Source: a virus (lineage: Duplodnaviria > Caudoviricetes). From it: a DNA stretch of 64,000 nt. The notes under the pieces are model-generated. The model was not told where the DNA came from. It saw only the letters and a list, made by a program, of their open reading frames with translations, and searched no databases. Shown here in pieces: positions 58,526 to 61,781 of the stretch. Location of the stretch: the IMG/VR virus record IMGVR_UViG_3300032092_000001. One strand, written 5' to 3'. The translations under genes and the position numbers were made by a program. Every line of letters begins with the position of its first letter. Position 1 is the first letter of the stretch.

Positions 58526-58876
58526 TTAGAAAGACTTGGTCCATCTCAACATATACTTACCATTAACTTTGTCAAATGGCTCAAAACTAACTCTGAAATT
58601 ACCTATATTACCATAGACCGGATAGATTGGGAATTCCCATCCATCAGATTTAATATGAAATGCATTAACACCAACAGGAGATTTCTTCAAAATTGATATA
58701 AAATCATCTGTCTTAACTTCAGTTCCAGCTTTAAATGGGAATCCCTTTGGGTTATTGTCAGGTATTTTAATGGTTTTAGGGACAATTTGTCCTTTGTCAG
58801 TTATCTGTTCTTCAATAACTCTTTTAACAATTTTAACTAAATCCGACTCTGTAAGTTTAATTACTTTTTTTATCAT
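58526..58876 (-). CDS. LTESDL-leader protein
   Basis: MIKKVIKLTESDLVKIVKRVIEE. Confidence 0.75.
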   Translation of the reverse strand: MIKKVIKLTESDLVKIVKRVIEEQITDKGQIVPKTIKIPDNNPKGFPFKAGTEVKTDDFISILKKSPVGVNAFHIKSDGWEFPIYPVYGNIGNFRVSFEPFDKVNGKYMLRWTKSF

Positions 58877-59181
58877 TTTTTAAGTGTTAAATATGTACCA
58901 TTAATTGACCAAGTTCCTTTATCTGGAACTCCCATCATATTTTTAAGTTGTATCTTTATTGATTTTTTGTTTTTATCGTAGTCAGGGTGGAAAAATACGA
59001 TACCACTCCCACCTCCAATTTTTAATACAAAATTACCTTTTGTTAAATCCTTAACACCTAATAGATTTTTAATTTTACTTGTTATTGCACCATCATTTAT
59101 TTTTTTTTCCAATGATTCATTAATAACCCCTTTAATAATATTAACCAAATCAGATTCTGTAAGTTTAATAATTTTTCCCAT
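58873..59181 (-). CDS. LTESDL-leader protein
   Basis: Start revised to MGKIIKLTES; TATTTATA at 59185-59192. Confidence 0.75.
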   Translation of the reverse strand: MGKIIKLTESDLVNIIKGVINESLEKKINDGAITSKIKNLLGVKDLTKGNFVLKIGGGSGIVFFHPDYDKNKKSIKIQLKNMMGVPDKGTWSINGTYLTLKK

Positions 59182-59203
59182 ACATATAAATATGTTTATA
59201 AAT

Positions 59204-59229
59204 AAAAAACCCCTCACATTGGAGGGGTT
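59204..59229 (-). terminator. intrinsic terminator
   Basis: AACCCCTC-ACATTG-GAGGGGTT. Confidence 0.8.
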
Positions 59230-60220
59230 AATGAAACCTTGTTGATATTTTATTTAGAATTTTGTTCCGCAGGTTGGACAAAATTTATGTGTATCTTTTT
59301 TTCGTCTGATTCCACAATTTGTACAATACAATACATTCACTTCCTTTGCAGTAAATGGTTTTTCTGACAATGGTAAGATTCTCCATGTTGAATAGTTTGA
59401 TGGGAATGAATTAAAATCCATGTTAACTGTTTCAAACTCTTGTTTTGAATCTGAACCTTTCTCAATTCTACCTGTTTCTTTGAACCTGTCAGTTTGTAAT
59501 GACTTTTTTAGGTTTGGAGATGTGTTATTATTAACACTACTGATAGGTGCAGAATAGTTTGTATAAAAAGCATTTGAGTCGCCAGCAAAAGTATTACTAT
59601 TGTTTGATACCATATTAACGTTTGTGTTATAGTACTTAGCATTCTCACCCCAAGTTATTTTATTATTACCACCTGTAGTTGTAGTGTTTATATCACCATA
59701 CCAATTATCATTGGTCCAAGTACTATTAGTACCGGCCAACGTTATAGTTGGGTTATTTAAATAAACATTCTCGTCATAGAATTCAACGACAACCTCACCA
59801 TTGTTTTTGATTGCCTCTTGAACTTCCTTTGATGATGAGTTAACCTCATACACCTCAAATTTGAACTTCCTTGCTTCGTTCAAATATCTTTCCAAGAATA
59901 CTCTCTGACCAGGTCGGACAATAATTCCACCACCTGATAGGTAATTCCCATTGATTTTTATTTTTGCTAAAACTGAATTTGATTTTGGGTTGAAGATTTC
60001 TACCTCAAATTCTTCCCCATCTTTAAGATAAACGCTTGAGCCGTTTTGTTTTAATCTTTGTTTCCTTGTCGTAATATGAGCCGACGGAAACTTCTTGAGT
60101 TCTGTGTAATACATTTTTTCCTTATTTTATTTTTTATGTTATTGAACCCCACTTCGTTGGTATTTCTCCAACTCAACTGTCTCATCGGACAGGTGGACCT
60201 CATCAACAAGGTTTCATTAA
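59228..60220. repeat. perfect 19-bp inverted repeat bracketing one gene
   Basis: TTAATGAAACCTTGTTGAT at 59228-59246; its reverse complement at 60202-60220. Confidence 0.8.
59254..60114 (-). CDS. hypothetical protein with a C-terminal zinc ribbon
   Basis: CTNCG...KFCPTCGTK; Asn/Thr-rich linker. Confidence 0.8.
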   Translation of the reverse strand: MYYTELKKFPSAHITTRKQRLKQNGSSVYLKDGEEFEVEIFNPKSNSVLAKIKINGNYLSGGGIIVRPGQRVFLERYLNEARKFKFEVYEVNSSSKEVQEAIKNNGEVVVEFYDENVYLNNPTITLAGTNSTWTNDNWYGDINTTTTGGNNKITWGENAKYYNTNVNMVSNNSNTFAGDSNAFYTNYSAPISSVNNNTSPNLKKSLQTDRFKETGRIEKGSDSKQEFETVNMDFNSFPSNYSTWRILPLSEKPFTAKEVNVLYCTNCGIRRKKDTHKFCPTCGTKF

Positions 60221-60252
60221 TAACTATAAGGTAATTTGTTTTTTTGTGAAGG

Positions 60253-60573
60253 TTATTTATAATAATATACAACTATGTCCGATTGAACATCAACCATAGT
60301 ATACTCAGCCCCAAGTTTATTCTCAACCCAGTGAGCGATTGCCGAAATAGAATCATTATTATCCAACGAGAAAAAACTAGAAATTTCTTTCATCAAATCT
60401 CTACTAATGGTAATCCAACCTCTAATTGGGTTATATTTAATCTGAGCATATAAATCTTCCTTTGAATTAACGAAAAACGTATACTCACCATAGTTCTTCT
60501 GAATGAAGTCCTGATTGTCAAGGTATTTAAATATTACCTTTTCTAGTTGTGATTCTGTTATAAGATATTTCAT
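60253..60573 (-). CDS. ITESQ/DNQDF paralog family member (dispersed copy)
   Basis: MKYLITESQLEKVIFKYLDNQDF...SSFFSL...WVEN. Confidence 0.8.
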   Translation of the reverse strand: MKYLITESQLEKVIFKYLDNQDFIQKNYGEYTFFVNSKEDLYAQIKYNPIRGWITISRDLMKEISSFFSLDNNDSISAIAHWVENKLGAEYTMVDVQSDIVVYYYK

Positions 60574-61088
60574 TACAACTCAATTCCAGTGTTATAAATT
60601 GTATCCCACTCATTCTCATTACAATAATCCAAGAAGTCCTTTGGTGACATTCTATATGAATCATCAAGTCCATAAACCCAAGAAACAAACTCAGAACAAT
60701 ACATCTTATCTTGTTCGTGATTCGATGGTTTCTTATGCCACTTTCCAGTCAACAATTCAATAGGTTGTTTAATAATTAAACCCTCAAAGTCATAAGCAGT
60801 TAAACCAACCTTACTCATTGCTTTAGTTGCAATCTTCTTCTCAGCAATAACTCTTGGTCTTCTCATAACCACAAAATTGTAGTTATATTCCTTAGCCCAT
60901 TCACCGAATGGTTTCACATTAACACCATTGTCCTGAGCATCAATGATATATGGTTCACCCCATATCCAAATGAATAATGCTGTGTGGTTAATCTGAGATT
61001 TTGTAGCCCATCTAATAATTCTACTCAATAAACTCTTCCCACGACAATGTAGGACATCACCTGTTTTAAATTCTTCAATATTCATCAT
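60573..61088 (-). CDS. permuted papain-like amidase (YiiX/YaeF-like NlpC/P60)
   Basis: GDVL...IRWAT.S.INHTAL and MYCSEFV. Confidence 0.8.
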   Translation of the reverse strand: MMNIEEFKTGDVLHCRGKSLLSRIIRWATKSQINHTALFIWIWGEPYIIDAQDNGVNVKPFGEWAKEYNYNFVVMRRPRVIAEKKIATKAMSKVGLTAYDFEGLIIKQPIELLTGKWHKKPSNHEQDKMYCSEFVSWVYGLDDSYRMSPKDFLDYCNENEWDTIYNTGIEL

Positions 61089-61110
61089 GTATATAAATAT
61101 GTTAAATAAT

Positions 61111-61138
61111 AAAAAACCCCACCTTATGAGTGGGGCTT
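61111..61138 (-). terminator. intrinsic terminator
   Basis: CCCCAC-CTTATGA-GTGGGG. Confidence 0.75.
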
Positions 61139-61154
61139 AATGAAGTCTTGTTAT

Positions 61155-61751
61155 TTATTTTATATCAGTTGTTTCAATTAATGTATATGTAAAACGATTT
61201 CCGTGAATATCTCTTGCCTTACGACAAATCTTCATAAACTCTTCAAAGTCCGCAGCCTTCTTAAACACCTGACATCCTTCAGACCAATTCTCAACATATG
61301 TTGAATCAGCTCCCGCCTTGTGAATATTAATACCATAAACACCTTCAGTGATTTTCTTCTCATCATAAATCATATCCTTGTTAGCGTCACGATAAACTTT
61401 AACAGGTTTGTCCTGTCCTAAAGCTTCGTACTTACCCTGATGTAATCTGATGATATGTGAACCACGATATTGTCCCTCAACCAAACGAGCAACACCATCT
61501 TTGTTGTGGTATTCCATCACACCCTTCTTACCTGGGTCAGTCGTTGCCGGCCAAACGTGACACTTCCATTCCCCATTCTCTTTGTAAGAAATTGTTATAT
61601 AATCATCAAAAGCGTTTGTAACCTTTTGTCCAGTTTCTGCGTTTCTGATTCCAACGATATTAACATCGTAACCTTTATTCTTATCATCGTTGAACCAAAC
61701 ATAACCTTTAGATTCTACAGATTTTTTAATTTGTTCTAATGTGTAACTCAT
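61155..61751 (-). CDS. putative cell-wall enzyme with an L,D-transpeptidase-like His/Cys motif (endolysin candidate)
   Basis: YGINIHKAG...WSEGCQV; TATTTATA at 61764-61771; start revised to MSYTLEQ. Confidence 0.6.
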   Translation of the reverse strand: MSYTLEQIKKSVESKGYVWFNDDKNKGYDVNIVGIRNAETGQKVTNAFDDYITISYKENGEWKCHVWPATTDPGKKGVMEYHNKDGVARLVEGQYRGSHIIRLHQGKYEALGQDKPVKVYRDANKDMIYDEKKITEGVYGINIHKAGADSTYVENWSEGCQVFKKAADFEEFMKICRKARDIHGNRFTYTLIETTDIK

Positions 61752-61781
61752 AATTTTTTTTATTATAAATATCATTTAAAT

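Follow-up and report, generated by a model that had tools for sequence, protein, structure and literature searches.

In the hbs mRNA of B. subtilis, a 14-bp pairing of the 5' untranslated region (UTR) with the 3' UTR modulates how RNase Y cuts the leader (Braun, Durand and Condon 2017, PMC5737220). Fold-back pairing between the 5' and 3' ends of a full-length transcript is also described for type I toxin mRNAs, such as hok/Sok (PMC9841398) and AapA1 (PMC6733600), where the helices keep the message translationally inert until its 3' end is trimmed. Fremin et al. 2023 reported 8,495 unnamed candidate structured RNA motifs from IMG/VR, applied a cis-regulatory filter that retains motifs ≤25 nt from a start codon, and mention the leader of the T4 gene 32 mRNA (PMC10690425).

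Here, we describe a cassette in a 64-kb stretch of phage DNA (hereafter the window), in which the 5' UTR of a single gene is predicted to pair with a 3'-UTR segment upstream of the terminator. By analogy, hbs is the closest known case, and any effect of the phage helix on nucleases is putative. In both, a long-range helix of approximately 14 bp joins a structured 5' UTR to the 3' UTR, and the hbs mRNA is monocistronic and well translated, with a strong Shine-Dalgarno (SD) sequence, which is a further point of likeness to the phage cassette. The phage helix differs in that it apparently starts at the extreme 5' end of the mRNA and immediately precedes the terminator. It also adjoins a three-way junction that hardly varies, and the helix itself is maintained, with covariation, throughout a large family of phage genes. 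The toxin mRNAs resemble the cassette in that the 5' end pairs with the 3' end and closes the message, and in that this pairing is conserved within a gene family. However, they carry tiny toxin ORFs together with an antisense RNA, whereas the phage ORFs comprise 255–349 codons, no antisense partner was seen, and the closed form is predicted to have an accessible ribosome-binding site (RBS). Assignment as a type I toxin mRNA was rejected, as the 286-aa ORF encodes an Ig-like domain and a zinc ribbon, and the RBS is 61–82% unpaired in predicted folds.

The leader of T4 gene 32 has an upstream pseudoknot followed by an unstructured A/U-rich stretch that runs to the RBS of a zinc-binding protein, and this element is the operator for autogenous translational repression. 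The phage cassette likewise combines a structured element far upstream with an unstructured stretch that ends at the RBS of a phage gene for a zinc-binding protein, but the T4 element is a pseudoknot rather than a three-way junction, the ORF product has no homology to gp32, and we know of no 5'–3' closing helix in the gene 32 mRNA. No description of the element was found in the literature, and the junction is perhaps one of the 8,495 unnamed motifs of Fremin et al. (PMC10690425), who used the same source collection (IMG/VR) and approach, although P1 of the window leader ends 27 nt upstream of the start codon and the long-range 3' partner falls outside their method. We regard the element as a cis-acting mRNA structure with 5'/3'-UTR pairing, known in kind, for whose junction RNA we found no earlier description.

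Layout of the gene cassette

The original prediction, made by reading the window, was of a perfect 19-bp inverted repeat enclosing one gene, and this repeat was confirmed at positions 59228–59246 and 60202–60220. Allowing ≤3 mismatches, the repeat arm has just two copies in the 64 kb (chance expectation, 0.09), and the pair is the top-ranked inverted repeat within a 3-kb span across the whole window. The next-best inverted repeats checked in the window were located inside ORFs, and the gene-bracketing architecture looks special to ORF 60114..59254 within this stretch.

The bracketed gene lies on the minus strand, which carries most genes in the region; hence, the arm at 60220–60202 is the 5' arm in the mRNA sense. 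The arms had been placed at the presumed 5' end of the transcript and past the stop codon ahead of the terminator, which agrees with the predicted ends of the minus-strand mRNA. A consensus scan identified a promoter-like site (60223–60250, minus strand) comprising a −35 element TTCACA (60250–60245), a 16-nt spacer and a −10 element TATAGT (60228–60223), and the spacing from the −10 element, together with the consensus promoter, suggests a transcript start near G 60215. The 5' arm, UUAAUGAAACCUUGUUGAU (60202–60220, minus strand), contains the invariant core ACCUUGU (60212–60206) and a conserved paired part at approximately 60215–60203. It runs into the three-way-junction leader (60142–60203, minus strand), which is followed by an A-rich unstructured spacer (60115–60141, minus strand) with a conserved SD-like UAAGGAAA, whose AAGG (60123–60120) lies 5 nt before the AUG. 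Within the spacer, AUAAGGAAA is nearly invariant among aligned homologous leaders. The ORF (60114..59254, minus strand, 286 aa) extends from the AUG at 60114 to a stop codon at 59256–59254, and the 3' arm, AUCAACAAGGUUUCAUUAA (59228–59246, minus strand; invariant core ACAAGGU, 59242–59236), starts 8 nt past the stop codon. Directly 3' of this arm is an intrinsic terminator (59198–59229, minus strand), consisting of a CCCCUC...GAGGGG hairpin (59229–59208) and a U-tract.

Promoter, arms, leader, ORF and terminator were always found together among the compared loci. The full 19 bp are restricted to the window phage and its close relatives, with the conserved RNA helix spanning approximately 11–15 bp, and the outermost 4–5 bp (the outer UUAAU) are probably located upstream of the transcript start.

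Conservation of a predicted helix joining the mRNA ends

The proposal that the mRNA ends could pair was supported by homologous loci, in which the arms are kept with compensatory changes. Conservation of the arms and junction, which had been put forward as a check, was found at >80 distinct loci, again with compensatory changes and at protein identities down to 35–47%. Wherever a homologous locus was examined together with its two flanking regions, a 5' arm (core ACCUUGU) adjoined the predicted transcript start, and a matching 3' arm (ACAAGGU) was located 13–20 nt past the stop codon and 5–17 nt ahead of the terminator.

To assess arm pairing, we used 53 distinct 5'-arm/3'-arm combinations, in all of which ACCUUGUN and NACAAGGU pair as the 8-bp core; 91% of helix cells were paired overall, compared with 27–46% in slid-partner controls. 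The position following the core (k=6) alternates between G-C (32 arm pairs) and U-A (19), k=−2 alternates between A-U (22) and G-C (19), and another outer position occurs as G-C, U-A or A-U. Mismatch cells in the helix comprised 70 G-U versus 22 A-C, and because G-U cells outnumber A-C cells, the pattern indicates pairing of sense-strand RNA rather than a DNA site. The number of independent compensatory events in this long-range helix is small (about four positions), because the sequences form few clades, and the invariant core, which lacks covariation, could be conserved owing to sequence-specific recognition and not pairing. The heptamer ACAAGGU is presumably also present near the 3' end of 16S rRNA (the 1492R primer site); this resemblance was dropped, as a 7-mer match to a 1.5-kb RNA would arise by chance roughly one time in five (rough estimate).

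Placement of the 3' arm follows the stop codon. CAAGG occurs 13–20 nt after the stop in 53/53 arm pairs, across ORFs of 255–349 codons, and the terminator stem of the homologous loci begins 5–17 nt past it; the distance between arms ranges from 871 to 1163 nt, and the stop-to-arm spacing is kept regardless. Three homologs of 341 aa (L004, L005 and L077) have an extension of approximately 60 aa past the zinc ribbon, and their 3' arm is relocated with the new stop, at the usual short distance from it. On the 5' side, a TAnnnT hexamer is situated 8–14 nt upstream of CCTTG in 68 of 77 distinct loci, and 48 of those 68 also have a TTTACA-like −35 element at 16–18-nt spacing. A hairpin plus T-run after the 3' arm was recovered under a strict test in at least 54 of the 77 loci. 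The TTTACA-N16-18-TATANT promoter class showed no enrichment in the window.

Folding predictions agree with the comparative data. Full-length MFE folds contained the end-to-end helix in 53/53 transcripts, with a helix pair probability of 0.86–1.00 in 13 diverse transcripts, whereas in folds of the 5' region only, the 5' arm had no consistent local partner. In silico, the end-to-end helix was thus shown to be thermodynamically dominant. The RBS was predicted to be unpaired with a probability of 0.61–0.82 in the full-length closed folds, versus a mean of 0.41–0.47 for the mRNA.

A look-alike of the arm had also been reported after the terminator at 61137. The match exists (61137–61152, 0 mismatches to AACAAGNNTTCATTAA), but in the orientation of the genes (minus strand) it precedes the terminator rather than following it. 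This orphan 3'-arm-like segment, AACAAGACUUCAUUAA, and its terminator (61114–61152, minus strand) come after the upstream gene 61775..61155. GG in the orphan core is mutated to AC, no 5' partner for the orphan arm was found in the window, and the orphan terminator resembles the ORF terminator (GCCCCAC...GUGGGG) of relative L001, in which the ORF is immediately followed by a homolog of gene 61775..61155. The orphan is probably a decayed copy left by module shuffling.

A three-way-junction RNA in the leader

All three helices named in the original prediction are present (all coordinates on the minus strand). CCAC/GUGG is contained in P1 (60203–60193 with 60152–60142), which includes a 1x1 internal loop; CUGUC/GACAG constitutes P2 (60192–60188 with 60181–60177), which has a variable loop; and GUUGG/CCAAC constitutes P3 (60172–60168 with 60160–60156), which is capped by the conserved loop AGAAAUA. 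The helices are joined by J2/3, UUGA (60176–60173), and J3/1, GAA (60155–60153). RNAfold predicts the same helices from the single sequence, with a z-score of −1.8 that is only marginally better than shuffles.

The suggestion that the leader is a cis-regulatory three-way junction gained support from covariation among homologs, for which we aligned 66 distinct leaders from homologous loci (alignment A1). In total, 97.1% of 1320 cells were paired and 12/20 pairs showed compensatory change; none of the shuffles of A1 attained the observed score or percentage paired, and slid controls reached 30–43% paired. RNAalifold returned the same three helices when no structure was supplied. The inner part of P1 exists in many fully complementary variants, among them UCCAC/GUGGG, CUUCA/UGAAG, CGUUA/UAACG, UUCUC/GAGAA and UCCAU/AUGGA, and P2 has three covarying pairs below its variable loop. 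P3 (GUUGG...CCAAC), J2/3 (UUGA) and J3/1 ((G/A)A(A/U)) are almost invariant, with the P3 loop occurring in two forms, AGAAAUA and AAUUGAUA. G-U pairs are abundant (for example, 49 at the first P2 pair), which shows the sense strand to be the folded strand. A search of all column pairs in the leader and 3' UTR for pseudoknot or P3-loop contacts recovered nothing beyond clade artefacts and the helices already described.

A covariance model built from A1 (R1) scored the window leader at 109.9 bits, as the sole copy in the window, and also found a leader (81.6 bits) before a 40%-identical homolog on a contig from a metagenome-assembled genome (MAG). The junction had also been proposed for comparison with known RNA families. 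Searching the whole window against Rfam 15 at gathering thresholds returned only six tRNAs, and with E-values up to 10 nothing overlapped 60142–60220, the weak matches all being located on terminators; the leader therefore has no family match in Rfam 15. On comparative grounds, the leader is a real structured RNA.

Distribution of the leader and the associated protein family

Scanning IMG/VR with an exact pattern of the P3 region yielded 117 matches, in which every full leader preceded a homolog of the ORF, and the remaining matches were chance occurrences inside unrelated sequence. A scan of JGI metagenome contigs recovered 33 true leaders, 31 of which had a recognizable homolog, with contig ends cutting off the other two. 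These in silico scans show the predicted leader to be found exclusively in front of this ORF family.

The protein family comprises 1321 homologs. An identical protein is recorded on a 285,295-bp contig, and homologs occur on IMG/VR contigs as long as 334 kb. The ORF product has an Ig-like beta-sandwich, a long N/S/T-rich low-complexity (disordered) insert and a C-terminal CxxC...CxxC zinc ribbon. No Pfam family was matched at the curated cut-off (a weak match to a zinc ribbon came closest, with 19 bits versus 25), and searches of PHROGs and PDB sequences with the ORF product gave nothing useful. The AlphaFold model was mediocre (pLDDT 54.7); Foldseek returned nothing at E ≤0.001 for this model, and VIA-align matched generic Ig-like folds only (Z ~7). 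ESM Atlas places the ORF product in virus-only hypothetical clusters, and by the Atlas summary, the family is virus-only.

Genomic context and putative host

The window carries six tRNA genes and PHROG-type phage genes. Of the 110 crude gene calls made in the window, just 6 have an SD-like motif, and because such motifs are otherwise rare in the phage, the conserved AAGG before the ORF is unusual. A homolog of ribosomal protein bS21 was encoded in 4/4 large relatives searched (L165–L168; the records of L036, L016, L008 and L019), all of which carry the cassette. In a 288,673-bp record with terminal repeats, bS21 is located approximately 3.2 kb upstream of the cassette. Freshwater "bS21 phages" that probably infect Bacteroidetes have been described (PMC9723584), and Bacteroidetes phage systems that ignore SD sequences encode bS21 (PMC9723584, PMC7797042). 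By analogy, the phage matches the freshwater bS21 phages, and we infer that its host is probably a member of the Bacteroidota. A scan of genome contigs returned a single MAG contig, and the host is hence assigned indirectly.

Neighbouring genes are reshuffled among close relatives. Upstream of the cassette, 60573–61088 encodes a permuted papain-like amidase (Peptidase_C92, E = 4e-10), and 61155–61775 encodes a phrog_3000 protein with a weaker match to an endolysin-annotated PHROG; the latter gene shares 66–70% DNA identity with Bacteroides phages DAC16-23 and crAss-like phages. On the other side, the adjacent small genes 58876..58526 and 59181..58873 share an 82%-identical stretch (58808–58868 and 59116–59176), which encodes the N-terminal tag KLTESDLV.I.K.VI.

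The motif ATATTTATA is enriched in the window, with 13 copies versus 4.0 expected, at sites that include 59185–59193, 61092–61100 and 61764–61772, plus ten others. At neighbouring genes, it immediately follows the preceding terminator, only a few nucleotides upstream of the start codon, and is a candidate phage promoter that would yield near-leaderless mRNAs. The neighbouring genes have this motif before the AUG and no SD, whereas the cassette gene has an SD-like motif instead.

Possible function of the closed transcript

On balance, we consider the cassette to be an RNA-level device of one self-contained phage gene. In the proposed mechanism, a sigma-70/T4-early-like promoter would start transcription at, or a few nucleotides from, the 5' arm, such that the first ~12–15 nt of the mRNA (core ACCUUGU) could pair with the 3'-UTR segment (core ACAAGGU), and the message of approximately 0.9–1.2 kb would close into a loop once the 3' UTR had been transcribed. 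The closing helix would abut, and probably stack on, P1 of the ~62-nt three-way junction, while the A-rich unpaired spacer and UAAGGAAA would keep the start site open and the closed form translatable. The paired 5' end, together with the helix and terminator at the 3' end, may shield the message from end-attacking and leader-directed nucleases. End protection alone fails to explain the near-invariance of P3, J2/3 and J3/1, and because P3 and the junction strands are near-invariant, a partner for the junction is called for. The invariant junction may thus be a docking site for a putative trans-acting regulator that sets translation or decay; this would most plausibly be a protein, which is our guess because of the analogy with the T4 gene 32 operator, although a small ligand or a ribosomal component is possible. 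With slightly more confidence than doubt, we therefore favour a nuclease-shielded, translatable closed-loop mRNA whose junction serves as a regulator docking site, for which we infer the transcript start, the stabilization, and the existence and identity of the binding partner.

A joint alternative seems fairly unlikely to us. Here, the 5' arm would toggle between weak local partners and the 3' arm, and the junction would bind a ribosomal or phage factor; complete transcripts alone would be licensed, and terminating ribosomes would be returned near the start site. This would be set in an SD-ignoring host system, probably of Bacteroidota, with phage-encoded bS21.

We find it decidedly unlikely that the arms form a completeness-sensing, anti-SD switch. 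In such a scheme, the 5' arm would cover the start region until the 3' arm, a better-matched SD mimic (ACAAGG), captured it, and only full-length transcripts would be translated. CCUUGU of the 5' arm is complementary to the SD-like AUAAGG and to UACAA just 3' of P1, and CCUUGU(U/G) can form 6–7 bp with (A/U)AUAAGG. In MFE folds of the 5' region only, computed for 63 leaders, the arm's partner is the SD region in 15 cases and the UACAA segment in 24, a distribution that offers no dominant local alternative. The conservation of AAGG against the rarity of SD-like motifs (6/110 genes) would fit such a switch, as would the bS21 homologs in all four large relatives searched, which parallel the SD-ignoring systems (PMC9723584, PMC7797042). 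However, one subgroup reads ACAAAGG and so does not preserve the AU that precedes AAGG, leaving only 4 bp, both partners are invariant and their covariation is therefore unscorable, and the pairing would need to enclose the stable junction.

The junction may instead be a small-molecule riboswitch aptamer, with the end-to-end helix or P1 as its expression platform, which we judge quite improbable. Stems that covary, junction strands that hardly vary and a single invariant hairpin loop make up a layout and conservation typical of ligand-binding RNAs, and the junction is compact, with P1 and P2 directly adjacent and a P1 internal loop that might dock the P3 loop. Nonetheless, no Rfam riboswitch was matched at E-values up to 10, and neither a terminator nor an SD-sequestering alternative is linked to P1, with the RBS accessible in every predicted fold. 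Nor does the downstream gene, which has no metabolic or transport role that would point to one, suggest a ligand.

In rRNA precursors and in T7 early mRNAs, flanking stems are processed. In our estimation, a processing stem of the RNase III type, which would mature a monocistronic mRNA from read-through transcripts, is a still weaker candidate for the phage helix. Read-through is plausible given the dense packing of neighbouring genes on the same strand, and the 11–19-bp helix adjoins the 10-bp P1, which if stacked would give approximately two turns of imperfect duplex. Excision would be unneeded, however, as the unit has its own promoter immediately upstream of the 5' arm and a terminator that adjoins the 3' arm. 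Moreover, the duplex is 19 bp here but 11–14 bp in most homologs, reaching two turns only if stacked on P1, and cleavage within the helix would destroy the conserved architecture.

A self-cleaving ribozyme of the hammerhead type has very little to recommend it: the three-way-junction topology, the CGAUGAG of the window P2 loop and the CGAA after P3 are suggestive, but CGAUGAG lies in a variable loop that is not conserved in homologs, no ribozyme family was matched in Rfam at E-values up to 10, and the assignment was rejected because J2/3 is UUGA rather than CUGANGA and there is no J1/2 strand. We regard a DNA-level element, either an invertible segment or a transposon or MITE with terminal inverted repeats, as just as improbable; the original prediction had raised an invertible or mobile unit, for which a perfect 19-bp inverted repeat flanking a single gene and the varying gene order near the cassette among close relatives would speak, but this was not supported, as 77/77 distinct loci with both flanks share a single orientation relative to the promoter and terminator, two elements that accompany the repeat in every case although located beyond it, no recombinase or transposase domain was found in the ORF or its neighbours, no target-site duplication or direct repeats flank the arms in the window, the G-U-biased mismatches indicate RNA pairing, and neighbouring genes without such repeats are also shuffled. 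Both a Hin/Gin/fimS-type invertible segment (one orientation at 77/77 loci, no recombinase domain found in the ORF or its neighbours) and an insertion sequence or MITE (no flanking direct repeats, ORF not a transposase) were accordingly rejected.

Significance of the proposed closed-loop cassette

The cassette, which we favour as encoding a closed-loop mRNA, represents a case in which compensatory changes preserve the predicted pairing of the mRNA ends throughout a gene family of environmental phages (1321 homologs) and in which this pairing is coupled to a junction RNA, the latter being a well-supported new family for RNA databases. It would provide a clean natural system for the effect of end-to-end closure on bacterial mRNA decay and translation, and may be informative especially for hosts and phages that mostly lack Shine-Dalgarno sequences and carry their own bS21.
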